Source: Candidatus Daviesbacteria bacterium (GTDB lineage Bacteria; Patescibacteriota; Microgenomatia; Daviesbacterales; UBA10151). Taken from it: a stretch of DNA of 64,000 bases. This document shows, in pieces, positions 4,981 through 63,921 of the stretch. Made by a program: the position numbers and the translations under genes. Position 1 is the stretch's first letter. The number at the start of each line of letters is the position of its first letter. Below the pieces are notes generated by a model that saw nothing but the letters and a program-made list of their open reading frames with translations, was not told where the DNA came from and did no database searches. The stretch spans positions 258,477 through 322,476 of the forward strand of contig JACOXI010000003.1 of NCBI GenBank assembly GCA_016176335.1, written 5' to 3'.

Positions 4981-5892
4981 ATGGTTAAATTTCACATAAA
5001 AACAGAAAAAGAAGTAGAAAATTTTGCAAAAATTGTTATTGAACCGTTGGAGGTTGGGTTTGGCCATACTTTGGGTAACAGCCTAAGACGAGTTCTCTTA
5101 ACATCATTGGGCGGTTCGGCTGTAACATCAGTTAAGATAGACGGAGTTTCACATCAATTCTCAACAATAGAGGGAGTGTTGGAAGATGTTATCGAAATAA
5201 TTTTGAATGTTAAAAAAATCCGCCTTCAGGTGGATTCAGAAGATCCGGTTAGATTGTTAATTAAAACATCAGGGAAAAAAGAGATTAAAGCCGGAGATTT
5301 TGAAGTTGCGGGAGCCGCACAGGTAGTGAATCCCGATCAACATATAGCAACTCTGACGGATACAAAATCCAAACTAAATATGGAGATGATTGCAGAAATT
5401 GGAAAAGGGTATTCTTTGGCAGAAGAGCGGAAAAGCAATGAAATAGGAATTATCGCAGTAGATGCATTATTCACCCCTGTTGTAGCAGTAAATTACAATG
5501 TTGAGCCGACAAGGGTTGGAAGAAGAACGGATTTTGACAAATTGGTTTTAGAGGTGACAACAGACGGATCTATTACTCCACAAGATTGCTTAAATGAGGC
5601 TGCAAAAATTTTATCAGATACTTTTAAAAAAATCTATGAGCCGGATATAGAAGAAAAAGTTGAAGAGACAAGTCTCGCAATTTCTGAAGAAGTGTTAAAA
5701 ATGACAATAGAAGAGTTGGATCTTCCTGTGAGAATAACCAATGCTCTAAAAGCTATAGAGATAAATATCTTAGAGGATTTGATAAATATTCCTAAAGCGC
5801 AACTTTTAAAAGCCAAAAATTTGGGTACCAAATCAATTAGTTTAATTTCTGATAAATTAGTTGAGAGGGGGTTGTCTTTGCGTGAGGCATAA
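4981..5892 (+). CDS. rpoA: DNA-directed RNA polymerase alpha subunit
   Basis: N-terminal domain (…FGHTLGNSLRRVLLTSLGGSAVTSVKIDGV.HQFSTIEGV…) and the C-terminal domain. Confidence 0.9.
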   Translation: MVKFHIKTEKEVENFAKIVIEPLEVGFGHTLGNSLRRVLLTSLGGSAVTSVKIDGVSHQFSTIEGVLEDVIEIILNVKKIRLQVDSEDPVRLLIKTSGKKEIKAGDFEVAGAAQVVNPDQHIATLTDTKSKLNMEMIAEIGKGYSLAEERKSNEIGIIAVDALFTPVVAVNYNVEPTRVGRRTDFDKLVLEVTTDGSITPQDCLNEAAKILSDTFKKIYEPDIEEKVEETSLAISEEVLKMTIEELDLPVRITNALKAIEINILEDLINIPKAQLLKAKNLGTKSISLISDKLVERGLSLREA

Positions 5893-6409
5893 TGTATATG
5901 GTAAAAAATTGGGAAGAAATAAAAACGAAAGAACTGCACTTTTTAAAAGTTTAGTGCGCAGTCTTTTTAGTTATGGAACTATTGAGACTTCCGAATCTAA
6001 AGCCAAGGCTGTAAAAGGGTTAGTTGATAAAATTATCAACCTGGCTAAAAACAAAAGCACCCAGCATTTATTGCAATCATATTTAGTAAACAGAGATTTA
6101 CAACAAAGATTAATTAAAGAAATTGCTCCAAAACTTTCTGATAGGATTTCCGGGTATACTACCATGTTGAGAATCGGTACAAGAGCAGGTGACAGATCAA
6201 CAATGGTAAGAGTGAGTCTGATACATAACGAGCAGTTAAAGCCAATAGAGAAAAAAGAATTAAGAATTAAGAATCGAGAATCAAGCGAAAAGATAGTAAG
6301 GACTGAAGTAAAAAAAACTGTTTCCGAGAAGAAAGGTAGAACTGGACAATCTGTTAGAAAAACTCACGTCACAAAGAAGAGGACTTCAAGATTGTCCAAA
6401 ACAAAATGA
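5882..6409 (+). CDS. rplQ: 50S ribosomal protein L17 with a Lys-rich C-terminal extension
   Basis: …RHNVYGKKLGRNKNERTALFKSLVRSLFSYGTIET…TTMLRIGTRAGD… matches L17. The start is probably GTG/TTG near 5876–5882. About 60 extra basic residues at the C-terminus. Confidence 0.8.
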   Translation: MRHNVYGKKLGRNKNERTALFKSLVRSLFSYGTIETSESKAKAVKGLVDKIINLAKNKSTQHLLQSYLVNRDLQQRLIKEIAPKLSDRISGYTTMLRIGTRAGDRSTMVRVSLIHNEQLKPIEKKELRIKNRESSEKIVRTEVKKTVSEKKGRTGQSVRKTHVTKKRTSRLSKTK

Positions 6410-7373: not shown

Positions 7374-8768
7374 ATGCCGCTTCTTAAAAAAACCATGTTT
7401 CGTGAATATGATCTGCGGGGCCGGGAAGCAGACGACGAGCTTAACGATACTTCAATGTACTATATTGGTCGCGGTTTCGGGGCATATCTTCACAAGCGTA
7501 GCATTAATGAAGCAGTGGTTGGTCATGATGCCAGGGGTACTTCCGAAAGTTTTCACCAAAGTGTCATAAAAGGATTAACTGAAAGTGGTATTAATGTAAT
7601 TGATACCGGGATAATTACCACCCCGATGGGTTACTGGTCTCAATATCATTTAAAAGTTAAGGGGCTGGTTACTGTTACAGCTTCTCATAATCCAGCCGGA
7701 TGGAACGGAGTAAAGCTTGGATCAGATCTGTCATATACACTTCTGACTGATGAATTACAGGAAGTTTATAATATCATTGCAAAAGAGGAATTTGTTGATG
7801 GAAAAGGAACAATTAAAAAAGCAGAGATATTCAAACCCTACAAAGAAGACTTAACTGCAAAGGTTAACATTGTAAAGAAATTCAAAGTTTTAGTAAATAC
7901 CGGCAATGGAACTGCTGGATTATATGTACCGGAAATCTTGAAAGCTGCAGGATGTGAAGTGGTTGACCACTTTACGAATGTGGACCCGACTTATCCAAAT
8001 TACACTCCAAATCCTGATGGAACTGCCATGATGGAAGATACTGCCAAACAAACTATAAAAAATAAATGTGATTTAGGATTTGCTTTTGATGGCGACGGCG
8101 ACAGGTTGGGGTTGGTTGATGAAAAGGGAAATGTGATCTGGCCAGACAGGTATATGATTTTGCTTTCCCGCCTTATTTTATCTAAACGACCTGGGGCCAA
8201 AATTATTTTTGATGTTAAGGTTTCAGAAGCTTTGCCAGAAGATATTAAAGCTCATGGTGGAGTTCCTATTATGTGGAAGACTGGGCATTCTCATATTAAA
8301 GCCAAGATGCATGAGGAAAAAGCAGCTCTGGCAGGAGAAATGAGTGGGCATATTTTCTTTTCAGATGGCTATTATGGTTTTGATGACAGTATGATTGCCG
8401 CCTTAAAACTTTTGGAATATTTAGCTACTCAAAACAAACCATTATCAGAAATTATTGATGATACTCCTTACTACATATCTACCCCGACCATTCAAGTCAA
8501 AACCACTGATGAAGATAAATACGATATAGTGGAGGAGTTAACTGCAGAATTTAAAGCTGAAGGGTATACAGTGATAGATATTAATGGAGCTAGAGTTTAT
8601 ACAGATAAAGGTTGGGGACTGGTGAGGGCTTCTTCCAATACACCAACACTAGTTTTAAGATTTGAAGCTAAAGACGAAAAAGAACTAGAGAGATTAAAAA
8701 AAATGATGAAAGAAAAATTGGATAAATTTGAAAAAGTTAGTAAAGATTGGGATACGAGCGGACACTAA
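7374..8768 (+). CDS. phosphoglucomutase/phosphomannomutase-family alpha-D-phosphohexomutase
   Basis: Active-site serine loop TASHNPAGWNGVK, metal loop FDGDGDRLG and sugar-binding GEMSGH. 464 aa. Confidence 0.8.
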   Translation: MPLLKKTMFREYDLRGREADDELNDTSMYYIGRGFGAYLHKRSINEAVVGHDARGTSESFHQSVIKGLTESGINVIDTGIITTPMGYWSQYHLKVKGLVTVTASHNPAGWNGVKLGSDLSYTLLTDELQEVYNIIAKEEFVDGKGTIKKAEIFKPYKEDLTAKVNIVKKFKVLVNTGNGTAGLYVPEILKAAGCEVVDHFTNVDPTYPNYTPNPDGTAMMEDTAKQTIKNKCDLGFAFDGDGDRLGLVDEKGNVIWPDRYMILLSRLILSKRPGAKIIFDVKVSEALPEDIKAHGGVPIMWKTGHSHIKAKMHEEKAALAGEMSGHIFFSDGYYGFDDSMIAALKLLEYLATQNKPLSEIIDDTPYYISTPTIQVKTTDEDKYDIVEELTAEFKAEGYTVIDINGARVYTDKGWGLVRASSNTPTLVLRFEAKDEKELERLKKMMKEKLDKFEKVSKDWDTSGH

Positions 8769-15770: not shown

Positions 15771-15843
15771 ATAAATTGATTATATCAAAGGTTTTCTGTA
15801 TTATTGTATGGATACGTGAATCAACTCAAAAGTCAAAACTCAA

Positions 15844-16128
15844 ATGTCAAAACCTAAGATTAACAAGGGTATTCAGATTCCAGATCAAATTTTACGAGAG
15901 TTGTTAACTGTCTCCGAATGGAGAATGTTAAAGAACCGCTTTCAAATAAAGAACCTTTTGGAAGAAGGATTATCCATAAGATCGGTGGCAAGTCAGGTTA
16001 GAGTTGGTACTGATACGGTAGTTAGGGTAGCCAGGATCATTGAAAAAAGTAACTTGAAAATTTTGAAAAAAGTAAAAAAACTGCCATTTAAAACTTCAAC
16101 CCCTTGGATTTTTGGGAAAAGTGAATAA
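15844..16128 (+). CDS. TrpR-like/YerC-YecD family DNA-binding protein
   Basis: …ELLT.SEWRMLKNRFQI…L.EGLS.R.VA..V.VGT.TV.RV is the TrpR/YerC helix-turn-helix signature. The N-terminus is encoded within a heptamer-repeat tract. Confidence 0.55.
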   Translation: MSKPKINKGIQIPDQILRELLTVSEWRMLKNRFQIKNLLEEGLSIRSVASQVRVGTDTVVRVARIIEKSNLKILKKVKKLPFKTSTPWIFGKSE

Positions 16129-36768: not shown

Positions 36769-38151
36769 ATGCAAGCATATATGGATCGCACATTAATTTT
36801 GGATTGTAAAGAGAAGGTTGGAAAAGAGGTGAAAATTTGTGGATGGGTTGTAACTGGCCGAGATCACGGAAAGCTCGTTTTTCTGGATGTCTTAGACAGA
36901 AGTGGAGTTATTCAAGTATTAGCATCTGGGGCTGACAAAAATGTTCCAGAGCTAAGACCCCAGGATGTAGTTTGTGTTACAGGAACTGTCAATAAAAGAC
37001 CACAAAATCTGGTTAATAAAAATATCCCTACGGGTGAAATAGAAATTTCAGCAGAAACTATTGAGGTTTTATCAAAAGCTCAAGAATTGCCTTTTGATAT
37101 GGGAGGTAAAGATTTGGATTTGCAGTTGCCAACTCTTTTAGATTTCCGATCCTTAACTTTACGTCACCCTAAGCTTAAGTCTATTTTCAAAGTTCAGGCA
37201 AGTCTGCTTGAGGGATTTAGGCAAGCAGCTTTAGATTTAGACTGTACAGAGATTGTAGTACCAACAATTGTGGCAGGAGCAACAGAAGGAGGGGCAGAAG
37301 TTTTTAAGATAGATTATTTCGGCCGTAAAGCCTACCTTTCCCAAAGTCCCCAGCTTTACAAACAAATGTTAGTGCCTGTATATGAGCGGGTCTTTACTAT
37401 TGCTAAGGCTTACCGTGCCGAACCCTCGGTTACCACCAGACATTTAACCGAAAGCACACAACTGGATATTGAAATTGGTTTTATAGAATTTGAAGACTTG
37501 CTGGATTTCCTGGAGGCAGTGGCGGTTAAAATGTTAACTGTTGCGGAGGAACAGTGCGGAGATATTTTATCTGAATTTGGTGTTGAAAAAATTGCTTTTG
37601 GCTCGCCTCGCTCCGCGGGCGGAGCGGGCAAAATTCCCAGACTGACCTTAAGAGAAGCTCAAGAAATAATCTTTAAAGAGTTTGGCAGAGATAATAGGAA
37701 TGAGAAAGATTTGACCCCGCAAGATGAGATAGATTTGTGTCAATGGTCGAAAGATAAACATCAATCGGATTTTGTCACCATCACTCATTTTCCAACTTCG
37801 GCAAAGCCATTTTACACCATGCCTAATCCAAAAAATCCAGAGTATAGTTTAAGTTATGACCTTCTTTTTAGAGGGGTAGAAATTTTAAGTGGTAGTCAGC
37901 GTATTAATGATTATCAGCAATTGCTCGATAGCATAAAAGGTCGGGGTATGAATCCTGATAATTTTCAGTTGTATCTTCAGGCTTTCCAGTATGGTATGCC
38001 CCCGGAGGGAGGATTTTCCTTCGGACTTGAGAGGGTTACGATGCATGTTCTAAATTTATCAAATATTAGGCAAGCCAGTCTTTTTCCAAGGGATATGGAA
38101 AGAGTTGATATCAGATTATCTCAAAACTCAAATCGCAAATCTCAAAACTAA
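36769..38151 (+). CDS. aspS: aspartyl-tRNA synthetase (archaeal/bacterial short type) with an in-frame 30-nt GC palindrome insertion
   Basis: OB-fold N-domain and class II motifs (FRAE…, …GGFSFGLERV…). A 10-aa GSPRSAGGAG insert is encoded by element copy 3. Confidence 0.9.
   Translation: MQAYMDRTLILDCKEKVGKEVKICGWVVTGRDHGKLVFLDVLDRSGVIQVLASGADKNVPELRPQDVVCVTGTVNKRPQNLVNKNIPTGEIEISAETIEVLSKAQELPFDMGGKDLDLQLPTLLDFRSLTLRHPKLKSIFKVQASLLEGFRQAALDLDCTEIVVPTIVAGATEGGAEVFKIDYFGRKAYLSQSPQLYKQMLVPVYERVFTIAKAYRAEPSVTTRHLTESTQLDIEIGFIEFEDLLDFLEAVAVKMLTVAEEQCGDILSEFGVEKIAFGSPRSAGGAGKIPRLTLREAQEIIFKEFGRDNRNEKDLTPQDEIDLCQWSKDKHQSDFVTITHFPTSAKPFYTMPNPKNPEYSLSYDLLFRGVEILSGSQRINDYQQLLDSIKGRGMNPDNFQLYLQAFQYGMPPEGGFSFGLERVTMHVLNLSNIRQASLFPRDMERVDIRLSQNSNRKSQN
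37600..37629. repeat. GC-rich palindromic mini-element (copy 3) in-frame in aspS
   Basis: GGCTCGCCTCGCTCCGCGGGCGGAGCGGGC has a near-perfect palindromic centre GCTCCGCGGGCGGAGC. It shares GGCTCGCCTCGC…GCGGGC with copies 1 and 2 and is flanked by AAAATT on both sides. Confidence 0.55.
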
Positions 38152-38280
38152 AACTTTAAATCTTAAAACTTTTTAAAGATTTTACCTTTAAGATGTAGAT
38201 TTGACCCATTCGGCTTCGTTCAGGGTCATCCTGAGCATTGTCGAAGGATGACATCTAAGATATAAGATTTGAGATTGTTA
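38119..38280. repeat. composite element: heptamer tandem-repeat arrays in inverted orientation flanking a GC-rich palindromic core (38203–38255)
   Basis: Left: TCTCAAA ACTCAAA TCGCAAA TCTCAAA ACTAAAA CTTTAAA TCTTAAA, encoding the aspS C-terminus …SQNSNRKSQN*. Core: GACCCATTCGGCTTCGTTCAGGGTCATCCTGAGCATTGTCGAAGGATGACATC. Right: CTAAGATATAAGATTTGAGATTG, the reverse complement of CAATCTCAAATCTTATATCTTAG. Confidence 0.5.
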
Positions 38281-39204
38281 ATAATGAAATATTATTTTTA
38301 TTCTGCTGGTTTAATTATACTGGCTATTATTTTTGCAACTACTTTACCAATTCTTACCGAGCAAAGTGAAAACACCCTACTTAGTCTACAAATTCCACAG
38401 AATAACTCCGCAGTTGCCGGTATTCAAAAGTACAATATCCCCCCTGTTAGCAAAAATATCCTCCCTCCGGAAATTTCCGCCCGATCTGTTTTAGTGAAAG
38501 ATCTGGGAACAGGAACTATCCTTTATCAAAAGGATGCAAATCTGCCGGTACCTATCGCATCAACCACTAAGATTGCAACAGCCTTGGTTGCCAGCGAATA
38601 TTTTAATCCCAACTCAATTTTAACAGTAAATCTGGGAGCAGAAATAAGCGGTGCAAAAGTAGGTCTTTTAAAGGGGGAAAACTTAAGTTTTAGGTCTCTT
38701 CTTTACGGGATGTTACTTAATTCCGGAAATGATGCGGCTTTCGCAATTGCGGAAAACTACCCCGGCGGAGTATTAGGTTTTGTTTCGGCAATGAACAAAA
38801 AATCAAATGAATTAGGGTTGAAAAGCACACATTTTGAAAATCCTGCCGGGTTTGATGGTCCCAATCATTTCTCATCTGCCTTGGATCTTTCTAAACTGAC
38901 AGAGGAGGCTTTGAAAAATTACCAGTTGGCAAGGATTTTTGCCACCAAAGACACCAGTATTGTATCCTTGGATAAAAAATATGAGCACCAACTCCATAAT
39001 TTAAATAAGCTTTTGGCTGATGTTAAGGGAGTGCTTGGTGTCAAAACCGGTTATACGCAAGCAGCAAAAGAAAATTTAGTCACTTTGGTTGATAGGGATG
39101 GTCACAAAATACTGGTTGTTGTTTTGGGTAGTGATGATAGGTTTGGGGAATCAACTAATTTGATTGAGTGGACTTATGATAACTTCATATGGCCCCAATT
39201 TTAA
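38269..39204 (+). CDS. D-alanyl-D-alanine carboxypeptidase (peptidase S11, PBP5-like)
   Basis: SxxK ASTTKIAT, SxN LNSGNDAA and KTG motif VKTGYT. N-terminal signal/TM. Confidence 0.8.
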   Translation: MRLLIMKYYFYSAGLIILAIIFATTLPILTEQSENTLLSLQIPQNNSAVAGIQKYNIPPVSKNILPPEISARSVLVKDLGTGTILYQKDANLPVPIASTTKIATALVASEYFNPNSILTVNLGAEISGAKVGLLKGENLSFRSLLYGMLLNSGNDAAFAIAENYPGGVLGFVSAMNKKSNELGLKSTHFENPAGFDGPNHFSSALDLSKLTEEALKNYQLARIFATKDTSIVSLDKKYEHQLHNLNKLLADVKGVLGVKTGYTQAAKENLVTLVDRDGHKILVVVLGSDDRFGESTNLIEWTYDNFIWPQF

Positions 39205-40244: not shown

Positions 40245-40301
40245 AGTTTTTGTTGCGAGCCTCTACTGTTATTATACAGGATCGAAAGGTATAATATGTT
40301 T

Positions 40302-41627
40302 ATGAACGTGAGAGTCAGGATTGCCCCATCCCCAACAGGATCACCACATATCGGGACTGTTTGGCAAGCCCTTTTTGATTTTGTTTTTGCCAAAAAAAAA
40401 CATGGCAAATTTATTTTGCGGATTGAAGATACAGACAGGGCAAGATATGTTGCCGAAAGCGAACAGGAAATTGTCGAAACATTTAAATGGTTAGGTTTTG
40501 AGTTTGATGAAGGTCCCAATATTGGGGGGGATTTTGGTCCGTATAGACAATCGGAAAGGCTTGAGATATACGAAAAGTTTGCCAGGGAGTTGGTGAAAAA
40601 GGGTACGGCTTTTGCAGATGAAGGAGCAGTCAGATTTAAGACAAAAAAGACAGGAGTAACCTCTTGGCACGATTTGGTGGGAAGTAAGCTGATAACTTTT
40701 GAAAATTCCACACAGGATGATTTTGTGATTTTAAAATCAGACGGATATCCCACATATAACTTTGCCAATGTTGTGGATGACCATTTAATGGAGATAACCC
40801 ATGTGATCAGAGGGAATGAATTTATCTCATCTACCCCAAAGCATTTGATGATATATGAATCCTTTGGTTGGCAGCCTCCTCAATTTGCCCATCTGCCGGT
40901 TTTGGTTGGGGCCGATCGGAGTAAATTATCTAAAAGACACGGGGCAAAATCCGCACTGGAGTTTAAAAAAGAAGGATACTTGAAAGAGGCGATCCTAAAT
41001 TTTCTGGCTCTTTTAGGGTGGACACACCCGGAAGGCAGGGAAATTTTCACTATAGATGAGATGATAGGTCTTTTTAATTTTAAAGATTTTAACTTGGCAT
41101 CGGCTTTTTTTGATACTACAAAGCTTGACTGGTTGAATGGGGAATATATTAGGAAATCTCAAAACTCAAAACTCAAAAGTCAAATTTTGGAATATTTAAA
41201 AGATATCTCAGGTGGGGCAATCGAGCATCCCACAGAGCAGGAAGTTGAGAAAGTAATACCGCTTATTAAAGAGCGGATTAAGAAATTATCAGATTTTATT
41301 CCTCTGACAGATTTTCTTTGGGAAAAGGCTGAATATGATTTACAAATATTTCAAAAATTAAATATTAAAGATCAAAAAGAAATTCTAACCAAAATTATAG
41401 AAGAGCTGAAAAACATGGAAAGACCTTGGAAGGCAGATATTTTTGAGGCAACCTTTAGGAAACTGGCAGAGGATTTGGGATTATCAGCTGCACAAGTTTT
41501 TCAACTAATCAGAGTGGCAGTGTCAGGCCAATTAGTTACTCCGCCTCTTTTTGAAAGCATCCAGATATTGGGAGAAAATGAGACTGTCAAAAGAGTTAAT
41601 GAAGTTGCAAACATTATAGGTTCGTGA
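40302..41627 (+). CDS. gltX: glutamyl-tRNA synthetase
   Basis: MNVRVRIAPSPTGSPHIGTVWQALFD (HIGH motif) and KLSKR (KMSKS motif). Contains an in-frame heptamer-repeat tract at 41157–41186 encoding …RKSQNSKLKSQI…. Confidence 0.9.
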   Translation: MNVRVRIAPSPTGSPHIGTVWQALFDFVFAKKKHGKFILRIEDTDRARYVAESEQEIVETFKWLGFEFDEGPNIGGDFGPYRQSERLEIYEKFARELVKKGTAFADEGAVRFKTKKTGVTSWHDLVGSKLITFENSTQDDFVILKSDGYPTYNFANVVDDHLMEITHVIRGNEFISSTPKHLMIYESFGWQPPQFAHLPVLVGADRSKLSKRHGAKSALEFKKEGYLKEAILNFLALLGWTHPEGREIFTIDEMIGLFNFKDFNLASAFFDTTKLDWLNGEYIRKSQNSKLKSQILEYLKDISGGAIEHPTEQEVEKVIPLIKERIKKLSDFIPLTDFLWEKAEYDLQIFQKLNIKDQKEILTKIIEELKNMERPWKADIFEATFRKLAEDLGLSAAQVFQLIRVAVSGQLVTPPLFESIQILGENETVKRVNEVANIIGS

Positions 41628-42633: not shown

Positions 42634-42704
42634 TGCGGGATGGTGAAATGGTATCACAACTGGCTCTGAACCAGTTATTCTAGGTTCAAATCCTAGTCCC
42701 GCAG
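42634..42704 (+). tRNA. tRNA-Gln (anticodon CTG)
   Basis: Hand-folded: acceptor TGCGGGA/TCCCGCA (U1:A72, typical of bacterial tRNA-Gln), D-stem GTGA/TCAC, anticodon stem ACTGG/CCAGT with loop CT-CTG-AA, T-arm CTAGG-TTCAAAT-CCTAG, discriminator G. A -10 TATAAT lies 7 nt upstream. Confidence 0.8.
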
Positions 42705-42815
42705 CCCTTCGACTTCGTCCCAATAAATTGGGACTTCGCTCAGGGCTATAGCCTTTTACTTTCATAAAGTAGAAGTCGAAGGCCCTGAGTGAGCGTAGCG
42801 AATCGAAGGGCTATA
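42705..42815. repeat. GC-rich long imperfect palindrome immediately 3' of tRNA-Gln (intergenic GC-repeat family)
   Basis: GCCCTTCGACTTCG…CGCTCAGGGC…GCCCTGAGTGAGCGTAGCGAATCGAAGGGC has arms pairing over about 30 nt. It shares the words CTCAGGG, GTCGAAGG, CCTGAG and GAGCGTAG with the elements at 38203–38255 and 63849–63915. Confidence 0.5.
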
Positions 42816-42823
42816 ATAATATC

Positions 42824-48847: not shown

Positions 48848-49075
48848 AAAAAATCCCCTTTCGGGGATACAATAAACACCAATTGGTGTATTTTTCTTTC
48901 TTTCATCCCGACTGTACCCTTCGATACTTCGACTTCGCTCAGTACTCAGGGTTCTTCACTTTGTGAAGAACGGTCGGCTTTGGACTTTCACCAAATCATC
49001 CATATACCGTTTCTGGTATGTGGTCGTGGGCTATACCACCGATTTTGACTTACACAAAACCCCGAAAGAACAGCT
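48848..49075 (-). promoter_or_regulatory. FMN riboswitch (RFN element) with terminator/SD-sequestering expression platform, 5' of the rib operon
   Basis: The minus strand reads …UCUUUCGGGGuuuuGUG.AA.UC…AUCGGUGGUauAGCCCaCGAcc…GGAUgauuugGUGAAAGUCCAAAGCCGACCGU…AAAGU…GAAGGGUACAGUCGGGAUGAAAGAAAG. This matches RFN conserved blocks (CGGGG, ACCGG.GGU, AGCCCGCGA, AAGCCGACAGU.AAAGU, GGAUG.AAGA). It is followed by AUCCCCgaaaGGGGAU plus U6 directly abutting the ribE ATG; the 3' half-stem GGGGA is the likely SD. Confidence 0.7.
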
Positions 49076-49264
49076 ATAGTATAACACAAAAAAATACATT
49101 CGACTATGCTCAGTATTTTTTTTGTGCTGAGTAATATCGAAGCACAAAAAAACTCGCGCAAGGCGAGTTTTCTTGAGAACCTACTTTTCAGTAAGCCAAA
49201 TGTTTATATCAAACAGATCAAGATGGGTCAAGTAGTACAAAATAGATCATGATACAATTAAGAT

Positions 49265-53938: not shown

Positions 53939-54436
53939 ATGAATGACAAAAAAATTATTATTGGCTTTGTAGTCTTAACGCTCTTAATACTGGGAGGTGG
54001 AGTTTATATTTTAAGTGTTACCACTGCTAATCCTGCTGTGGTTAATCTTGCCCAAAATGCCAAAGTGTCTGTTGATCAAAAAACTCATGATTGGGGAAAT
54101 ATCCCTTATAGCGGAGGTAATGTCAGCAAAACTTTTACTATTAAAAATACAGGAACTGATTCCTTAAAGCTGACTAACATAAAAACTTCATGTGCTTGTA
54201 CTTATGCTCAAGTAATCATCGATGGGAAGACAAGTCCTAATTTTGGTATGCACACCACTTCTTCCTGGGTGGGAGAGGTGGCTCTAGGTAAAGAAGCCAA
54301 CTTAACGGTCGTTTTTGATCCGGCTTTCCATGGTCCGTCAGGTGTGGGAGCTATTGAACGGTTGGTGTCGGTTGAAACAAATGATATTCAAAATCCTAAA
54401 TTAGAATTTTCCTTAAAAGGGGTAGTAGTGAAATAA
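53939..54436 (+). CDS. DUF1573-domain protein (N-terminal TM + beta-sandwich)
   Basis: …HDWGNIPYSGGNVSKTFTIKNTGTDSLKLTNIKTSCACTYAQV… matches the DUF1573 pattern (DFG.I…F.F.N.G…L.I..V..SCGCT). Confidence 0.55.
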   Translation: MNDKKIIIGFVVLTLLILGGGVYILSVTTANPAVVNLAQNAKVSVDQKTHDWGNIPYSGGNVSKTFTIKNTGTDSLKLTNIKTSCACTYAQVIIDGKTSPNFGMHTTSSWVGEVALGKEANLTVVFDPAFHGPSGVGAIERLVSVETNDIQNPKLEFSLKGVVVK

Positions 54437-54449
54437 TTCAAAATTCAAA

Positions 54450-55397
54450 ATGCAAAATTCAAAATTACAATTAAAAATTCAAAAATTTTTATCTAAAGCA
54501 GTGCCGCTTTGGATGGTGCTTTTGATTGTTTTAAATTCCACCCTAATCATGGGTATTATCCAGTACTATTTGATGAAGCAGGAATTGGATAAAAATATCC
54601 GGCAGCTTGCAAAAACCACTCAAACTCCCCAGCAACTGGCGCAAATTTTAAAACAGGAGGTTGTGCCTCAAAAAGGTTATGTGACCTCTTTAAAATGGAA
54701 AGATTTAGGCAAAAGATTAGTGGAGACAGGGGCTATTGATAAGAAAAAATATGAGGAAATCTTTACTCAAAATGTGGATGGAGGGGATCATATGAAATAT
54801 ATGGATGGAAATTGGGAGGAGAATATTGCTATTAACGAGCAAAATGCCCGTTTTATGGTTAATACTTTTTGGGCTTTGGGGTTGGTTAATAAGAGTAAGG
54901 TTTTAGATGAAGGGCCAATGAGGGGAGAGGGTATTGAAACCGGAAACATGGCTTCAACCGCAGGTTGGACTTTGGGTAGTAAACCTGCCATGGAGCTTTA
55001 TTCTTCAAGTCCAACAATTCCTTTAACTGCCGAGCAGCAAGAACTGGTTAAAAAGATTGCCCAAAATGTTTTTCGTCCTTGCTGCGGTAACTCAACTTAT
55101 TTTCCGGACTGCAACCATGGTATGGCTGCCTTAGGATATATTGAGTGGGCAATCTATAATGGATTATCTGAAGACCAAATTTATAAAGATCTTTTAGCCT
55201 TTAATTCTTTCTGGTTTCCGCAAAATTATGTAGAGATGGCAGTTTATTTTGATAAGCAAAATATCAAATGGAAAGATTTAGACCCAAAATTGGCACTCTC
55301 TGCCTCTTATTCTTCGGCGCAAGGTGTGCAGCGTATAAAACAAGCCATACAATCTGTTCCCGGGGTTTCCGGAAGCGGCGGAGGTTGTGGTGTATAA
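54450..55397 (+). CDS. Cys-rich 'CCxNS…DCNHG' family protein, paralog A (metal island)
   Basis: N-terminal TM, then …LTAEQQELVKKIAQNVFRPCCGNSTYFPDCNHGMAALG…AFNSFWFPQNY…GSGGGCGV*. Clear paralog of the C-terminal 300 aa of ORF 59878–61326 (FRPCCNNSTFFQDCNHG…AFNSFWFPQNY…GGAGCGV*). The 5' end is encoded by a heptamer-repeat tract. Confidence 0.5.
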   Translation: MQNSKLQLKIQKFLSKAVPLWMVLLIVLNSTLIMGIIQYYLMKQELDKNIRQLAKTTQTPQQLAQILKQEVVPQKGYVTSLKWKDLGKRLVETGAIDKKKYEEIFTQNVDGGDHMKYMDGNWEENIAINEQNARFMVNTFWALGLVNKSKVLDEGPMRGEGIETGNMASTAGWTLGSKPAMELYSSSPTIPLTAEQQELVKKIAQNVFRPCCGNSTYFPDCNHGMAALGYIEWAIYNGLSEDQIYKDLLAFNSFWFPQNYVEMAVYFDKQNIKWKDLDPKLALSASYSSAQGVQRIKQAIQSVPGVSGSGGGCGV

Positions 55398-56401: not shown

Positions 56402-56674
56402 GTGAGAAAAATGTTAAATGCAAAAGCTTTTGCCAATGCGGCATCAGCCGTGATGGGAATTTGGGTGGTAGTTTGTGCATTAGTTTCATATATTGCACCG
56501 GACCTTTTGTTTACTATAGCCCAATCCTGGATGCATACCATTAATTTGGAGGTAGCCAAAACTACTTTCAGTCCGAATTTGGGATTATTACTTTTGGGGC
56601 TGGTAAGCGCAACAGGTCTAACCTGGATAACAACCTATGGCACCATCAGTTTATACAATAAGTGGGTAAGATGA
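56402..56674 (+). CDS. small 2-TM membrane protein
   Basis: RBS AAGGAGGTGAG 8 nt upstream; 90 aa hydrophobic. The ORF ends overlapping the copB start. Confidence 0.4.
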   Translation: MRKMLNAKAFANAASAVMGIWVVVCALVSYIAPDLLFTIAQSWMHTINLEVAKTTFSPNLGLLLLGLVSATGLTWITTYGTISLYNKWVR

Positions 56675-58905
56675 TTGAAAAAAATATGTATATTTGTCCA
56701 ATGCATCCTGATGTTATATCCGAAAGAGCAGGTAAATGTCCCAAGTGTGGTGGCATGGATTTAGTGGAGAAGAAAGAGGAACATGGTATAAGTCACGATA
56801 TGCACGAAGTTGATCAGCCCCAAAGAGCCGGTATGTATTACAGCTGTCCTATGGATCCGGAGGTGATTTCCAAAAAGCCTGGTAATTGTCCCAAATGCGG
56901 CATGGAGCTTATGCCAATAACAAAAGAACATGGGGGTTTGGATCATGCAAATATGGAAGAGGGTTTCAAGCGAAGATTTTTTGTCACCTTACCTCTGGTA
57001 TTTATTATTGTAGTGCTTGCCCCAAAGATTCAGGAATGGTTCAGGTTTAGCCTCACATTCCCGGGAATGGAAATTGTGACCTTTGCCTTAACCTCGGTAA
57101 TAGTTTTCTACTCTGGTTTGCCTTTTTATCAGATGGCCCTTGGTGAAATTAAAGCCAAAAAGTACGGCATGATGACTTTGGTTTCATTGGCTGTTTTATC
57201 AGGGTATTTTTTCTCTGTTGCCGCAACTTTCCTTTTTCCGGGAGAAAATCTTTACTGGGAAATTGCCACATTGGTTTTGGCATTTTTGCTGGGTCACTGG
57301 ATAGAAATGAGAGCTGTTCGGGGCGCAACAGGGGCACTGGCTGAATTGGCCAGACTTATTCCTCCCACGGCCCATAAGATAGTGATAAGTGGCAAGAGAA
57401 AAGTAATTAGTGATGTGGGAACAGGACAATTAAAAAAGGGCGATCTGATTCTGGTTCGTCCAGGAGAAAAAATGCCCATTGATGGGGTGGTTTGGGAAGG
57501 AGAATCTGCTGTAAATGAGTCAATGGTGACAGGAGAGTCTGTTCCTGTAGAAAAGAAAAAAGGGTCAGAAGTGATAGGCGGGACGATCAACAGTGACGGT
57601 TCTCTGACAGTTAAGGTCACAAAAACCGGGGAGGAAACAGCCATCTCCCAGATGATGGAGCTGATTCGGCAGGCACAAGAGAGTAAACCTGATGTACAAA
57701 AAATGGCTGATCAAGCAGCCAGCTGGTTAACATTTACTGCCCTGACAGTAGGTATAGGCACCTTTTTGTTTTGGTTTTTTGGATCAAACCAGGGGGCTAT
57801 TTTTGCCGGAACTTTGGCGATTTCCGTAATTGTTATTGCCTGTCCTCATGCTCTGGGTCTGGCTATCCCGACTGTCACCACTATCACTACGGCTTTGGCT
57901 GCCAAAAACGGAATTTTAATCAAAGACATGAGGGCTTTGGAGATTGCCAGAAAACTTAACTGGGTGGTTTTGGATAAAACAGGAACGTTAACAGAGGGGA
58001 AATTTGGAGTGTCTGATGTGGCAACATTTGGGAAAATATCGTCTGTGGAGATTATTAACTTGGCAACTGCTTTGGAGTTTCATTCTCAACATCCGATTGC
58101 CCAGGGTATTGTGGAGGAGGCCAAAAAAAGGAGAATGAATATACAACCTGCCAAAAATTTTAAATCTATTCCCGGCAAAGGAGCAGAAGGTTTGGTAGAT
58201 GGAAAAAAAGTGGTAGTGGGGAATCAGGCACTGATGGAAGATTTAAGAATTAAGAATATAGAATCAAGAATTAAGGGATTTAAACAGGAAGGGAAAACTT
58301 TTATTTTTGTGGCCATAAATAACAGATTAGTTGGGGCAATTGGGCTGGAAGATGTCATAAGGCCACAGTCAAAAGAAGCAATAGATGCTTTTAGGGAAAT
58401 GGGCATTAAAACAGCCATGCTGACCGGTGATCATGAAACTGTTGCAAAAATGGTGGCTGAAAGATTGGGTATAGATACTTTTTTTGCCCAGGTTCTACCC
58501 GGGGATAAGGTTAGCAAAATCAAGCAGTTGCAAGAAGGGGGCAATGTGGTGGCGATGGTGGGGGATGGGATTAATGATGCGGCCTCTTTAACCCAGGCTC
58601 ATATTGGTATTGCCATTGGGGCAGGCACGGGAGTGGCCATTGAGTCTGCAGAAATAGTGCTGATGAAAAATGACCCCAGGGATGTAGTTAAAGCTATAAA
58701 ACTTTCTCAAAAAACCAACATTAAGATGGTGCAAAATCTTGCTTGGGCAGCAGGTTACAATATCATTACCATCCCCATGGCAGCCGGTATTTTTTATAAC
58801 CTGGGAATTCTGCTGCGCCCTGAATGGGCAGCGCTTTTGATGAGTGCCTCATCTGTGATCGTGGTTTTCAATGCCTTGCTTTTAAAAAAGGAACGTCTTG
58901 ACTGA
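56662..58905 (+). CDS. copB: P1B-type heavy-metal-translocating ATPase, CPH subtype (CopB-like) with two N-terminal Cys4 metal-binding mini-domains
   Basis: Two repeats YICPMHPDVISERAGKCPKCGGMDL / YYSCPMDPEVISKKPGNCPKCGMEL. TM6 motif CPH (…IACPHALGLAIP…), DKTGTLT, GDGINDAA, HP. 747 aa. Confidence 0.9.
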   Translation: MGKMIEKNMYICPMHPDVISERAGKCPKCGGMDLVEKKEEHGISHDMHEVDQPQRAGMYYSCPMDPEVISKKPGNCPKCGMELMPITKEHGGLDHANMEEGFKRRFFVTLPLVFIIVVLAPKIQEWFRFSLTFPGMEIVTFALTSVIVFYSGLPFYQMALGEIKAKKYGMMTLVSLAVLSGYFFSVAATFLFPGENLYWEIATLVLAFLLGHWIEMRAVRGATGALAELARLIPPTAHKIVISGKRKVISDVGTGQLKKGDLILVRPGEKMPIDGVVWEGESAVNESMVTGESVPVEKKKGSEVIGGTINSDGSLTVKVTKTGEETAISQMMELIRQAQESKPDVQKMADQAASWLTFTALTVGIGTFLFWFFGSNQGAIFAGTLAISVIVIACPHALGLAIPTVTTITTALAAKNGILIKDMRALEIARKLNWVVLDKTGTLTEGKFGVSDVATFGKISSVEIINLATALEFHSQHPIAQGIVEEAKKRRMNIQPAKNFKSIPGKGAEGLVDGKKVVVGNQALMEDLRIKNIESRIKGFKQEGKTFIFVAINNRLVGAIGLEDVIRPQSKEAIDAFREMGIKTAMLTGDHETVAKMVAERLGIDTFFAQVLPGDKVSKIKQLQEGGNVVAMVGDGINDAASLTQAHIGIAIGAGTGVAIESAEIVLMKNDPRDVVKAIKLSQKTNIKMVQNLAWAAGYNIITIPMAAGIFYNLGILLRPEWAALLMSASSVIVVFNALLLKKERLD

Positions 58906-61372: not shown

Positions 61373-62809
61373 ATGAGTGCAAATATGTTTGATTTAATTA
61401 TTATTGGTGGTGGAGCAGGCGCTTTTGCTGCTGCCATTAAGGCTAATGAACTCGGAGCAAAAACTTTATTAGTTAACAAAGGACTGCCTCTTGGTGGGAC
61501 CTGTGTTAATGTTGGTTGTGTTCCATCTAAAACTCTCCTTTGGGCCGGCGAGGTGATGCATCTTGCCAGAAACCACAAGATTCCGGGAATAGATATAGAG
61601 GTTAAAAGGTTTGATTTTGCCCAAATTGTCCAACACGAGCTTGATTTAGTAGAAAAGTTAAGAGCTGAAAAATATGAAAAAATTTTAAATGGTTTAGAGA
61701 GTGTTACTTATCTAGAAGGACAAGCGACTTTTGTTTCTCCTTATGAGATCGAAGTTAATCCTTCGACAGAGCTCAGGACAGGTGGTCAAAAGTATCAGGC
61801 TAAGAAATTCATTATCGCTGCTGGATCAACTGCAACAGTACCACCAATTGATGGGATTAAGGAAGTAGGATACTTAACTCACATTGAGGCTCTACAGATT
61901 AAACAGCAACCAAAGAAACTAATCGTAGTAGGTGCTGGTCCTTTAGGACTGGAGTTTGCCCAAATGTTTGCCAGGTTTGGTACTAAAGTAACAATATTAC
62001 ATAGAGGACAATCCATTTTCCGTGGTGAAGAAGAATTAACAACTAGACTTGCTGAAATACTCACTGAAGAAGGAATAACTATTAAAACTAATGTCCAAAT
62101 AAAAAGTGTCAGAAAAGATGGAGAGAAAAAGGTTTTAGTATACAAAGAAGCAGACTTGTCCGCCGAAGCCTTGGTAAAGGCGGATGAAATACTACTAGCT
62201 GCAGGTAAAACTCCCAATACCCAAGGAATGGGTCTTGATAAAGCTGAAGTTGGGATGGATGAGAAACAAACGATTAAAGTCAACTCCTACTTTCAAACTT
62301 CTCAATCGCATATTTATGCTATAGGTGATGTGACGGATAGCCCGCTAAGACTTGAGCCAACTGCAGGGAGGGAGGGTACACTAGCTTCAGAAAACGCCTT
62401 AAATAATGCCAAAAATAACATTGACTATAATACTGTGCCCTGGACTATCTTCACTGATCCGCAACTTGCAGGAGTAGGACTTACAGAAGAGCAGGAGATG
62501 GAGCAAATAGGAAGATGTTTATGTCGGACTGTTTCTTTTGCCAACGTACCTAAAGCCATAATAATGAATCGTACGGAAGGTTTAATCAAGATGGTTGTCC
62601 ACCCGGATACAAAAGTGATCCTGGGCGTTCATATACTGGCTCCAAATGCAGGAGAGTTAATTGCTCAAGCAATGGTACTTGTCAAGAACAAAAATACCAT
62701 TGATGATGTTATCAATTCTTTACCAATGTTTCCAACTCTTTCAGAAAGTATAAAAACCGTTGCGTTGTCTTTTACTAGAGATATAAGTAAACTAAGTTGT
62801 TGTATATAA
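61373..62809 (+). CDS. merA: mercuric reductase-like flavoprotein disulfide oxidoreductase (no N-terminal HMA domain)
   Basis: FAD motif IIGGGAGAFAAA, redox-active GGTCVNVGCVPSK, NAD motif and a C-terminal vicinal Cys pair …KLSCCI* (MerA ends …KQLSCCAG). Confidence 0.7.
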   Translation: MSANMFDLIIIGGGAGAFAAAIKANELGAKTLLVNKGLPLGGTCVNVGCVPSKTLLWAGEVMHLARNHKIPGIDIEVKRFDFAQIVQHELDLVEKLRAEKYEKILNGLESVTYLEGQATFVSPYEIEVNPSTELRTGGQKYQAKKFIIAAGSTATVPPIDGIKEVGYLTHIEALQIKQQPKKLIVVGAGPLGLEFAQMFARFGTKVTILHRGQSIFRGEEELTTRLAEILTEEGITIKTNVQIKSVRKDGEKKVLVYKEADLSAEALVKADEILLAAGKTPNTQGMGLDKAEVGMDEKQTIKVNSYFQTSQSHIYAIGDVTDSPLRLEPTAGREGTLASENALNNAKNNIDYNTVPWTIFTDPQLAGVGLTEEQEMEQIGRCLCRTVSFANVPKAIIMNRTEGLIKMVVHPDTKVILGVHILAPNAGELIAQAMVLVKNKNTIDDVINSLPMFPTLSESIKTVALSFTRDISKLSCCI

Positions 62810-62810
62810 A

Positions 62811-63848
62811 ATGGATCTTTGGTTAATTTTCCTGACCGGTTTAACTGTAGGGGGGTTGACCTGTATGGTAGTACAGGGGGGGCTTTTGGCCGGGGTTTTG
62901 GCGGCAAAAGAAGAAGAGGATTTTACAGAAGGCAGTCAAAGAAAACACAACGTACTACCGGTTTTGGCATTTTTGATAGCTAAACTTATTGCGTATGTAA
63001 CTTTAGGTTTTATACTGGGTACTTTTGGTTCAACGCTGGCCATTTCCGATAATACCCGGATTGTCATGCAACTTATTGCAGGGGCGTATATGATAGCCAT
63101 AGCTTTGGATCTTTTGAATGTTCACCCGATTTTTAGATATGTTGTGATCCAGCCTCCTAAATTTTTAACCAGAATGATTAAGGATACCTCGAAAAGCCGC
63201 GATTTATTTGCCCCGGCAATTTTAGGATTTTTGACTGTTTTTATCCCCTGCGGTACTACTTTGGCCATGGAAGTTTTTGCCATATCTTCCGGCAGCGCAA
63301 TTTGGGGGGCTTTGATTATGGGTACATTTACTTTGGGAACCTCACCTTTGTTTTTGGGATTGGGGTTTATTACAACTGTGTTGGGTGATACTTTCAGGAC
63401 GCGATTTTTCAAGTTGGCCGGGGTTTTGGTTGCGTACCTTGGGATCACTACCTTCAATGGAGCGCTGGTTTTGGCTGGATCGCCAATTACTTTGCAAACA
63501 ATCAGAGATATGATCCCCATTCAAATTGATCTTTCCGGTGGAGCGCAGGCAGCTTCAGATTCTAATGTGCAAGTTTTGGCAGGAGTACAAACTGCAAACA
63601 TTTTGGTTTACCCGACAGGTTATAGCCCAAACTACATACAGATTAGATCAGGAATTCCCGTGAGGTTTAATTTGGCTACAACCGGGGGTTTTGGTTGTAC
63701 ATCCCAGTTTCGGATTCCCCAACTTGGGCTTAGCAAAAATTTAACTCAAAATAGTATAACTTCTGTAGAGTTTACGCCGCAGACTAAAGGTAAGATTGTC
63801 TGGACTTGCTCAATGGGTATGTATTCGGGAATAATGAAGGTGATATGA
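62811..63848 (+). CDS. DsbD_2-like 6-TM domain fused to a C-terminal cupredoxin-like Cys/Met domain
   Basis: TM1 …GGLTCMVVQGG… and TM4 …VFIPCGTTLAM…, each with a single Cys. C-terminal 100 aa …GGFGCTSQF…VWTCSMGMYSGIMKV* resembles cupredoxin/TRASH-like metal sites. Confidence 0.45.
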   Translation: MDLWLIFLTGLTVGGLTCMVVQGGLLAGVLAAKEEEDFTEGSQRKHNVLPVLAFLIAKLIAYVTLGFILGTFGSTLAISDNTRIVMQLIAGAYMIAIALDLLNVHPIFRYVVIQPPKFLTRMIKDTSKSRDLFAPAILGFLTVFIPCGTTLAMEVFAISSGSAIWGALIMGTFTLGTSPLFLGLGFITTVLGDTFRTRFFKLAGVLVAYLGITTFNGALVLAGSPITLQTIRDMIPIQIDLSGGAQAASDSNVQVLAGVQTANILVYPTGYSPNYIQIRSGIPVRFNLATTGGFGCTSQFRIPQLGLSKNLTQNSITSVEFTPQTKGKIVWTCSMGMYSGIMKVI

Positions 63849-63915
63849 GCGAAGCGAGTATCATCCCTTCGGGTCTGAGCCTCAGGGTCGAAGACCTGAG
63901 CGTAGTCGAAGGATC
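63849..63915. repeat. GC-rich nested-palindrome repeat (intergenic GC-repeat family)
   Basis: GAGCGAAGCGAGTATCATCCCTTCGGGTCTGAGCCTCAGGGTCGAAGACCTGAGCGTAGTCGAAGGATC. Its core TCAGGGTC-n-CCTGAGC-RTWGTCGAAGGAT is shared with 38203–38255; the words are shared with 42705–42815. Confidence 0.5.
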
Positions 63916-63921
63916 TATTTG

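Follow-up and report, generated by a model that had tools for sequence, protein, structure and literature searches.

The aspS gene and a downstream S11 peptidase gene of a Candidatus Daviesbacteria genome are separated by a structured spacer, in which inverted arrays of heptamers accompany a GC-rich hairpin core. The spacer lies in a stretch of 64,000 nucleotides (contig JACOXI010000003.1, positions 258,477 to 322,476), termed here the window, and all positions given are those of the window. The original prediction, made from the sequence alone, described positions 38119-38280 as a miniature inverted-repeat transposable element (MITE)-like composite. The stretch is better explained, and probably so, as two independent kinds of repeat that met at a mutational hot spot, not as one mobile element. 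The comparisons described below demonstrate a compact ancestral-type junction between the two genes, heptamer arrays that are local and change stepwise, arms and core that can be separated, and a strong predicted fold. Arms and core are regarded as separable repeat classes because each occurs without the other.

Organization and Predicted Fold of the Spacer

The junction comprises the following features.

36769..38151, + strand: aspS, an open reading frame (ORF) of 460 amino acids; aspartyl-tRNA synthetase (AspRS), non-discriminating, archaeal-type
38114..38279, + strand: whole three-way-junction fold (predicted RNA fold)
38118..38170, + strand: left heptamer array, A+, with ATCTCAA/AACTCAA-type units in about 7.5 copies; direct-repeat family D1; 25% GC
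38128..38204, + strand: AT-rich hairpin of A+ with A-, 26 bp in three helices of the minimum-free-energy fold
38172..38204, - strand: adjacent inverted heptamer array, A-, reading TTTAAAG ATTTTAC CTTTAAG ATGTAGA TTTGA; inverted repeats I3, I6 and I9
38203..38227, - strand: putative degenerate unit resembling repetitive extragenic palindromic (REP) sequences, GACCC-ATTCGGCTTCGTTCAG-GGGTC
38205-38252: GC core, 48 nt; GC content 54% (arrays, 22-25%; whole window, 38%)
38225..38252, + strand: REP-like GA-hairpin unit, GTCATCC-CTGAG-CATTGT-CGAAG-GGATGAC, with the joint C and G written twice
38253..38279, - strand: right heptamer array, inverted relative to the left array; inverted repeats I1, I2, I4 and I5, 74-79% complementary
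38284..39204, + strand: S11 peptidase gene (D-Ala-D-Ala carboxypeptidase-like), ORF; PF00768 in orthologs

The database matches of aspS are homologs from Candidatus Daviesbacteria named aspartate--tRNA(Asn) ligase, the best of them 100% identical. The true start of the peptidase (MKYYFYSAG...) is the ATG at 38284, because its orthologs begin with M(K/R)YY(F/L)YSAG; with the aspS stop codon at 38149-51, this start defines an intergenic spacer of 132 nt.

Read in register, A+ consists of the units ATCTCAA AACTCAA ATCGCAA ATCTCAA AACTAAA ACTTTAA ATCTTAA, and the program Tandem Repeats Finder (TRF) reports it both with period 7 (5.3 copies, score 44) and with period 21 (2.5 copies, score 64). Its main pairing partner is the adjacent A-, which aligns with the reverse complement of A+ at a score of 29, a value reached by 5 of 2000 shuffles. 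The right array also carries reverse complements of left-hand units (CTAAGAT ATAAGAT TTGAGAT, at 38255-38275) and ends 5 nt before the next start codon. Inverted heptamer arrays are present, as had been claimed, but A+ pairs mainly with its neighbor, and the outer left and right arms align over 17 nt only, with 14 matches and about 10 bp in common, a weak similarity when taken alone. The outer-arm score was reached by 106 of 2000 mononucleotide shuffles, by 252 of 2000 dinucleotide shuffles, and by 93 of the 1678 other 38-mers of the window. The core, originally given as 53 bp, measures 48 nt; its description as a GC-rich hairpin holds, since it can fold either into a 15-bp hairpin (TTCGGC..GTTCAGG/CCTGAGC..GTCGAA) or into a perfect 8-bp stem (GTCATCCT/AGGATGAC). 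The stretch contains no ORF beyond the tail of aspS, in agreement with the lack of coding capacity first proposed.

Because A- is the main partner of A+ and the outer arms match weakly, the predicted shape is a three-way junction rather than two arms around a core. It consists of a closing helix (38114-24/38269-79), the AT hairpin (38128-38204) and the GC hairpin (38206-38247), and the closing helix pairs the end of the aspS coding sequence with positions -15 to -5 relative to the peptidase ATG. The RNA fold has a predicted energy of -43.7 kcal/mol (z -4.19, with none of 200 shuffles as good), a second estimate gave z -4.45, and DNA parameters gave z -2.5 for the whole stretch. The stretch as a whole is strongly structured.

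An independent Logan contig (SRR4343435, 1.6 kb), identical in aspS, agrees with the window sequence as far as 38221. Positions 1620-1635 of this contig (L001) correspond to 38206-38221 of the window, so that the contig ends inside the GC core; its end there could reflect strain polymorphism, low coverage or difficulties in assembling a hairpin. The break at 38221 was considered as evidence of a repeat and set aside, the last k-mer being unique.

Orthologous aspS-Peptidase Junctions

The junction was compared in about 36 lineages. Most commonly, and in at least 12 lineages, the two genes overlap by 4 nt (ATGA/GTGA) or by 1 nt (TAATG), and about a dozen further lineages have gaps of 0-25 nt. 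In several of the short gaps the aspS terminus is visibly duplicated in tandem, for instance as two copies of TTAAGTAAATA in L050 and as (AAAAGTA)3 in L059. Long spacers are few and each is different: apart from the 132 nt of the window, they are found in the first five lineages listed here, with a related tail in the sixth.

L034, the closest relative (87% amino acid identity): 116 nt, inverted TTTACAA/TTGTAAA arrays, no GC core
L040: 78 nt, inverted TTTCTAA/TTAGAAA arrays, no core
L048, sister of L040: 141 nt, the arm types of L040 and, at the apex of the hairpin, a degenerate core-like segment (GTCATCAGGATTTAAGATCCGAAGGATCGC)
L088 (58% identity): about 115 nt, inverted TCAAAT-type arrays
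L044: 108 nt, GC hairpin units only, no heptamers
L087 (Levybacteria): a tail, not a spacer; the aspS tail has an in-frame GC unit, followed by an (AAGAATW)4.4 array and its inverted copy

The spacers with inverted arrays are likewise predicted to fold into hairpins along their whole length (z -3.7 in L034, -2.4 in L048 and -2.2 in L040; -39.1 kcal/mol in L088). In L048, (TTGACCTAA)3 duplicates the aspS terminus. Between this lineage and its sister L040 the differences are one 9-mer, one heptamer and, separately, a 45-nt indel with the core-like segment at the hairpin apex; no clear target duplication accompanies this indel. The pattern is that of stepwise array change plus an independent core insertion, as read from the two aligned junctions. 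An inverted heptamer-array hairpin also occurs at an unrelated intergenic site in L077. Other loci with inverted arrays, for which a search had been recommended, therefore exist at the junction of L034, L040, L048 and L088 and elsewhere in L077, with a GC hairpin as well in L048 and L087. The layout is not unique to the window, uniqueness having been set beforehand as a refuting outcome. The arms are particular to each lineage; they have sequence in common with the neighboring aspS end, from which they appear to grow, and are found both with and without a core.

A second reading of the spacer is that of a selected cis-regulatory RNA between aspS and the peptidase gene, acting as a terminator or attenuator, as a hairpin for RNase processing or stabilization, or as a translation gate, with the repeats as its raw material. 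The strong fold (z -4.2 to -4.45) speaks for such a role, as do the closing helix over positions -15 to -5 of the downstream ATG, the repeated origin of hairpin spacers at this junction, and the extent of the hairpin, which in every long-spacer lineage spans essentially all of the distance from stop to start. This reading is nevertheless considered unlikely, for most lineages lack a spacer and keep the ATGA overlap, and neither sequence nor length is conserved among the lineages that have one, so that there is no covariation evidence for this structure. An inverted duplication, moreover, yields a hairpin automatically, whether selected or not. The suggestion that the core acts as the aspS terminator was not borne out: a consensus scan of 38152-38283 found no intrinsic-terminator signature, and the GC stem is followed by ATCTAAGATATAAG, with no T-run. 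For the spacer, the Rfam 15 search of the window gave no family at gathering score, and at E<=10 positions 38000-38400 returned only microRNA and greA noise with E>1.

The C-Terminal Tail of AspRS

The left heptamer array encodes the last 11 codons of aspS, and the stop codon at 38149-51 lies inside it, confirming the overlap noted at the outset. The last 10 residues of the enzyme, SQNSNRKSQN, are heptamer-encoded. AspRS orthologs of Daviesbacteria terminate in ...FPRDMERVDIRL followed by K, NK, SK or similar residues, and the Thermus thermophilus AspRS structure (PDB 1n9w) aligns with residues 7-446 only. SQNSNRKSQN is thus a repeat-encoded extension, which bears out the earlier statement that the array sets the C-terminus of an essential enzyme. 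Similar heptamer-coded tails occur in some orthologs (SQSSKVKSQK, TQSSKQKS and TQNSKLKTQK), the DNA being (AGTCAAA)n or (ACTCAAA)n.

Other insertions are seen within AspRS. A perfect GC-rich hairpin, CGCTCCGCGGGCGGAGCG, at 37609-37626 inside aspS encodes GSPRSAGGAGK, a segment missing from many orthologs and from PDB 1n9w; other orthologs carry variants, among them GSPREAGK and GSPRSAPASTKVAGGAGKILPAGRQV, and the hairpin resembles an in-frame palindromic insertion of a second kind. GC-rich-looking insertions are present in the N-terminal anticodon-binding domain of the AspRS orthologs P0016, P0030, P0042, P0043, P0056, P0061, P0065, P0071 and P0089, with VHLEGVKAHLRGE and VHLGGV...RGD as examples, and are lacking in the AspRS of the window.

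The GC-Hairpin Family

The right-hand unit of the core belongs to a family of small hairpins that was found first by pattern in 32 IMG/VR contigs and then, with the stem left unconstrained, in more than 120 contigs with CTGAGCGAAGTCGAAG. A covariance model, R1, was built from the IMG/VR viral instances; counts by regular expression (regex) are lower bounds, since the regex missed copies that R1 found. Among 124 distinct CTGAGCGAAGTCGAAG instances, from contigs of 38-73% GC, the flanking positions pair in 113-114 of the 124, with 54-65 double changes. The covariation score was 0.40 against 0.15 in shuffles (0 of 500 as high), and slid controls remained at or below 0.16. The constant part can be drawn as a helix in which C-G, U-A, G.A, A.G and G-C pairs would surround a variable loop of 5-6 nt.

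The right unit of the core, which may also be read as GTCATCC-TGAGCATTGTCGAAG-GATGAC, matches R1 at 38223-38254 (20.7 bits, E 0.002), and its stem (38225-32/38245-52) is the inverted repeat I16, of 8 bp and 100% complementary. To its left, the reverse complement of 38203-38227 fits the CTGAGCGAAGTCGAAG core at 13 of 16 positions. It may represent a degenerate unit of the family, in which case the core would be a head-to-head doublet.

At least seven GC-hairpin sites occur in the window, and only the one at the aspS junction adjoins heptamers. The others include the following.

42704-42746 (- strand) and 42777-42816 (+ strand): two units in opposite orientation, 3' of the tRNA at 42634-42704; R1 matches
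48919..48960, - strand: units in the P6 loop of a flavin mononucleotide (FMN) riboswitch, a perfect CTGAGCGAAGTCGAAG unit nested in a second unit; R1 31.8 bits, E 2e-6
49090..49150: head-to-head doublet with A/T runs on either side; R1 match at 49119-49150 and regex match
61753..61784, - strand: unit in a pyridine-nucleotide-disulfide-oxidoreductase-like ORF (61373-62809), in-frame NPSTELRTG; R1 18 bits
63850..63915, + strand: cluster of overlapping units; R1 and regex

The FMN riboswitch (48891-49073, - strand) carries in its P6 loop an insertion of 59 nt, identified from the Rfam FMN alignment, which consists of a small AT hairpin and the nested GC units; even with this insertion the riboswitch still scores 80.2 bits, above the Rfam threshold. 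The P6 loop forms a series among relatives, being bare in L051 (CGT|ACAGTCGG), occupied by one unit in L053 and by the nested pair in the window. In-frame copies of the family are also found in relatives, in RecJ, in glutamyl-tRNA synthetase (GluRS) and in another enzyme.

Several of these sites show further detail. Between 42704 and 42816, one unit has an AT hairpin, GTCCCAATAAATTGGGAC, in its loop between repeated CGAAG motifs, and the other holds a nested partial unit. The doublet at 49090-49150 reads TTTTTGTG...CACAAAAAAAATA...TATTTTTTT and lies upstream of the riboswitch promoter region; by its layout it looks like a two-way terminator. The cluster at 63846-63920 begins at the stop codon of the ORF at 62811-63848 and takes up the space as far as the next start codon. 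In RecJ, the variants HSERSEES and DPELVEG occupy one and the same site, each in a different lineage, and a third copy lies elsewhere (L037 3173-3190, L056 6435-6452, L036/L099 about 8330-8360), an arrangement that suggests insertion hot spots. The IMG/VR contig 3300038435_000085 (36 kb; L143, L155, L168) has at least 16 copies of the family on one strand, many of them after TCGGT and between genes; in its first 5 kb the genes are on the opposite strand.

Seven hairpin-rich contigs gave no match to Rfam. Literature searches with the core sequence, in DNA and RNA spellings, returned no relevant paper, and those for palindromes and heptamers of the candidate phyla radiation (CPR) returned nothing specific. 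A hammerhead-like or K-turn reading of CUGAG...CGAAG was rejected, as there is neither the G8/A9 of a hammerhead core nor a 3-nt bulge. A plasmid BLAST search gave a single short match in an IS1182 transposase gene of Sphingobium, which was judged a coincidence, the match being ordinary coding sequence (HPSTMLK) in the conserved N-terminal domain. A phage BLAST search with the doublet of a viral contig (L002) gave one short match in an unannotated record.

Heptamer Arrays in the Window and Its Relatives

Tandem arrays were surveyed with TRF (score >=40) in the window and related loci, 1.5 Mb in total. Arrays of period 7 predominate (n=68), followed by those of period 14 (n=35), period 21 (n=14), period 9 (n=9) and period 8 (n=1), and the heptamer arrays have a median length of 32 nt with an interquartile range of 31-34. 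At least 6 heptamer tracts other than the one at aspS have no adjoining GC core, among them those of the window at 6255, 15823, 41154, 54429 and 58238.

These tracts are placed in various ways relative to genes. The arrays at 15823-15853 and 54429-54487 cross start codons (of ORFs from 15844 and 54450), and those at 6255-6285 (ORF 5861-6409) and 58238-58275 (P-type ATPase ORF 56662-58905) are coding arrays of AAGAATT-type units, in which point differences avert the in-frame TAA of a perfect array. In gltX (40296-41627), the array at 41154-41184 encodes KSQNSKLKSQ and swaps 10 codons of GluRS with the length unchanged, relatives having MSNEELEKRL. At the same gltX site, perfect 4.4-copy arrays of other heptamers (AAATCTC, AAAACTC, AAATTTC, AAAATTC and AATTACC) are found in at least 10 other Microgenomates lineages, and lineages with gltX arrays have in common the downstream motif ILEYLKDxSGGA. 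The repeat structure persists while the encoded peptide changes, a pattern that resembles concerted evolution acting on the DNA.

Proposed Origin of the Spacer

The order of events proposed here begins with an aspS/peptidase junction in which the genes normally overlap by 4 nt (ATGA) or lie less than 20 nt apart, and which grew to 132 nt in the lineage of the window. An A-rich heptamer at the native 3' end of aspS (...TCTCAAAA; ...TTA TCT CAA AA...) would have been tandemly duplicated, presumably by slippage, moving the stop codon downstream and giving AspRS a low-complexity tail of 10 residues. Inverted copies of the array may then have arisen by intrastrand template switching or snap-back synthesis, turning the whole spacer into a foldback. 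A head-to-head doublet of REP/REPIN-like GC hairpins would have been inserted separately, after the split from the L034 lineage; it would come from the family in which the CTGAG...CGAAG tandem G.A core is constant, the loop varies and the stem covaries.

In the mRNA, the product would be the three-way junction, whose closing helix pairs the last aspS codons with the 15 nt upstream of the peptidase ATG. Such a fold could hold the aspS stop and the peptidase start near each other, and a ribosome terminating on aspS would melt the helix over the downstream initiation region. The translational coupling once provided by the ATGA overlap might thereby be retained, and the 3' end of aspS possibly protected. 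A coupling role is the most likely consequence of the fold, and is speculative; the spacer could equally be a near-neutral by-product.

Several points weigh against this account. The coupling role is conjectural, and Shine-Dalgarno motifs are so sparse in the source genome that they give no guide to whether a ribosome-binding site is occluded. Slippage and template switching are read from their presumed products. A close strain sharing this spacer was sought and not found: an exact-protein look-up for empty and filled sites among strains gave the one 1.6-kb contig ending inside the core, and one metagenome scan with the aspS 3' end gave only one other lineage, with a compact TAATG junction; the order of events is therefore drawn from more distant lineages. 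The left unit of the core was not recovered by R1 at E<=10. GC units recur at the aspS junction in four lineages (the window, L048, L044 and L087), and arms and core could thus be less than fully independent, for example if a foldback attracts the hairpin repeat. The count of full composites covers 64 kb of the source genome, and copies elsewhere in it are possible.

The one-element explanation originally put forward, a genuine MITE with the heptamer arrays as terminal inverted repeats, the GC hairpin as cargo and a transposase acting in trans, is highly improbable in comparison with this account. A non-coding element of 162 bp with inverted ends and a structured interior does fit the general definition of MITEs (PMC10969869), and a similar arms-plus-core layout appears at the orthologous site of L048 and near the aspS end in L087. 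The outer arms, however, match at 14 of 17 nt only (p about 0.05-0.13), no target-site duplication is seen at 38114-38118/38276-38283, and no second arms-plus-core composite of this sequence was found in the window or in the 1.5 Mb of related loci. Each lineage has its own arm sequence, partly in common with the aspS 3' end beside it; arms are found without a core (L034, L040, L088 and L077) and cores without arms (L044 and at least 6 sites of the window); and sister loci differ by 7- or 9-nt steps in copy number and by a separate 45-nt indel. The single-element view is accordingly disfavored. That the spacer is chance low-complexity AT-rich sequence or an assembly artefact can be practically dismissed, for although the outer-arm match alone is within the reach of chance and one independent contig breaks in the core, the inner arrays pair with p about 0.0025, the fold reaches z -4.2 with 0 of 200 shuffles as good, the independent Logan assembly is the same up to 38221, comparable structures are present in at least 6 independently assembled relatives, and the core fits a covariance model built from unrelated contigs.

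Relation to Known Repeats

The locus combines known things in variant form, heptameric simple sequence repeat (SSR) foldbacks together with a REP-like hairpin, and both its host and its context are unusual. Heptameric SSRs are over-represented in many bacteria, mostly with about 4 units and sometimes as inverted pairs with stem-loop potential; they change fast between relatives, and polymerase slippage has been suggested as the cause (PMC4692102). The arrays described here consist of head-to-tail 7-nt units, show an excess of period 7 and vary in copy number and sequence between relatives. They resemble the short tandemly repeated repetitive (STRR) sequences of the cyanobacteria Calothrix and Nostoc and the GGGAATC repeats of Xanthomonas in their tandem 7-nt units, typically in about 4 copies, in the period-7 excess, in forming inverted pairs able to make stem-loops, in lying near gene ends, and in their fast change of length and sequence (PMC4692102). 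Unlike those G-rich repeats, their units are A/T-rich (TCAAA-type) and lack G-quadruplex potential, and the host is a CPR bacterium. Many of the arrays, moreover, are coding or cross stop or start codons, and at the aspS junction an overlap has become a foldback spacer of 132 nt.

The GC-hairpin family is best filed, on present sequence comparisons, beside the REP/REPIN sequences. Its units are imperfect palindromes of 25-30 nt with a covarying stem, arranged at some sites as inverted doublets (a putative one at 38203-52, and those at 42704-816 and 49090-150), at no fewer than 7 sites in 64 kb; in relatives the density is only about 1 per 50-60 kb, with several genic copies. The RAYT-associated REP of Coxiella burnetii, GTAGGTTGGGCTGAGCTTGCGAAGCCCAAC, has the same CTGAGC-N3-CGAAG loop on a different stem (PMC2817692). 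The family differs from REP/REPIN sequences in lacking the 5' GTAG/GTGG tetranucleotide, which is present as GTAG in the Coxiella REP just mentioned (PMC2817692); the flank is GGGTCAT at the aspS junction and GTCAT, GTTCG, CTCAT or CGGT in the family. It differs also in its low copy number, its in-frame genic copies, its nesting in other hairpins and the occurrence of one constant core across contigs of 38%-73% GC.

In-frame insertion recalls the Rickettsia palindromic elements (RPE), which lie in frame in unrelated housekeeping genes without destroying them (PMC10969869); the corresponding sites here are RecJ, GluRS, the AspRS tail and the oxidoreductase. RPE are about 100-150 bp long and specific to Rickettsia, whereas the units of this family measure 25-30 bp (8-12 codons), show no sequence similarity to RPE and reside in a CPR host, and the copy at the aspS junction is intergenic. 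The DNA mini-hairpin d(GCGAAGC), unusually stable and with a sheared G.A pair, is found at phage single-stranded DNA origins (PMC13037366). The commonest loop of the family, GAGCGAAG(T)C, contains or closely resembles GCGAAGC, while the loop of the unit at 38225..38252 is CATTGT and not GCGAAG.

With the bacterial MITEs Correia, ERIC, Chunjie and QMITE, the spacer shares its small size, non-coding nature, inverted ends, folded transcript and location at the 3' end of a gene (PMC10969869). It differs from them in having neither target-site duplications nor multiple homologous copies in the window and the related loci, and conservation of its terminal repeats is not convincing.

Inverted arms of short tandem repeats around a central loop characterize the foldback (FB) transposons of Drosophila, which are eukaryotic, kilobase-scale and multicopy. 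The spacer resembles them in having inverted arms built of short tandem repeats and differs in that it shows no sign of transposition and its arms appear to come from local sequence.

Implications

CPR genomes are small and tightly packed, and little is known of how they gain non-coding sequence. At this locus a gene overlap has given way to a structured spacer of 132 nt, and an essential enzyme has gained a new tail. On the account given above, two unremarkable-seeming processes would have sufficed, slippage of heptamers with inverted duplication and the insertion of a REP-like hairpin. For annotation, heptamer tracts and GC cores are best handled as two distinct classes of repeat, and low-complexity C-terminal protein tails such as SQNSKLK as repeat-derived.

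A more tentative proposal, for which the odds appear distinctly lower than for the origin described above, concerns the core itself. It may belong to an undescribed and very widely spread self-propagating hairpin module with the constant CUGAG/CGAAG tandem-G.A core and a free, covarying stem, present in CPR bacteria and in viral or metagenomic contigs of 38-73% GC. The module would insert by preference into existing hairpin loops, and also in frame into essential genes, with the heptamer foldbacks of Microgenomates serving as landing pads. Examples of such loops would be those at the tip of heptamer foldbacks, the P6 loop of the riboswitch for FMN and the loops of other family copies. If this proposal is true, growth of the foldbacks and insertion of the module would together create new intergenic space and new protein tails in otherwise streamlined genomes.

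The hairpin family, with its constant 5+5-nt G.A core, is absent from Rfam and tolerates or targets structured RNAs and coding regions. Should a RAYT-like enzyme of CPR bacteria or of their phages mobilize it, this would add a new host range for such systems. Of the two kinds of repeat that probably meet at the aspS junction, the hairpin family is itself the more interesting lead.

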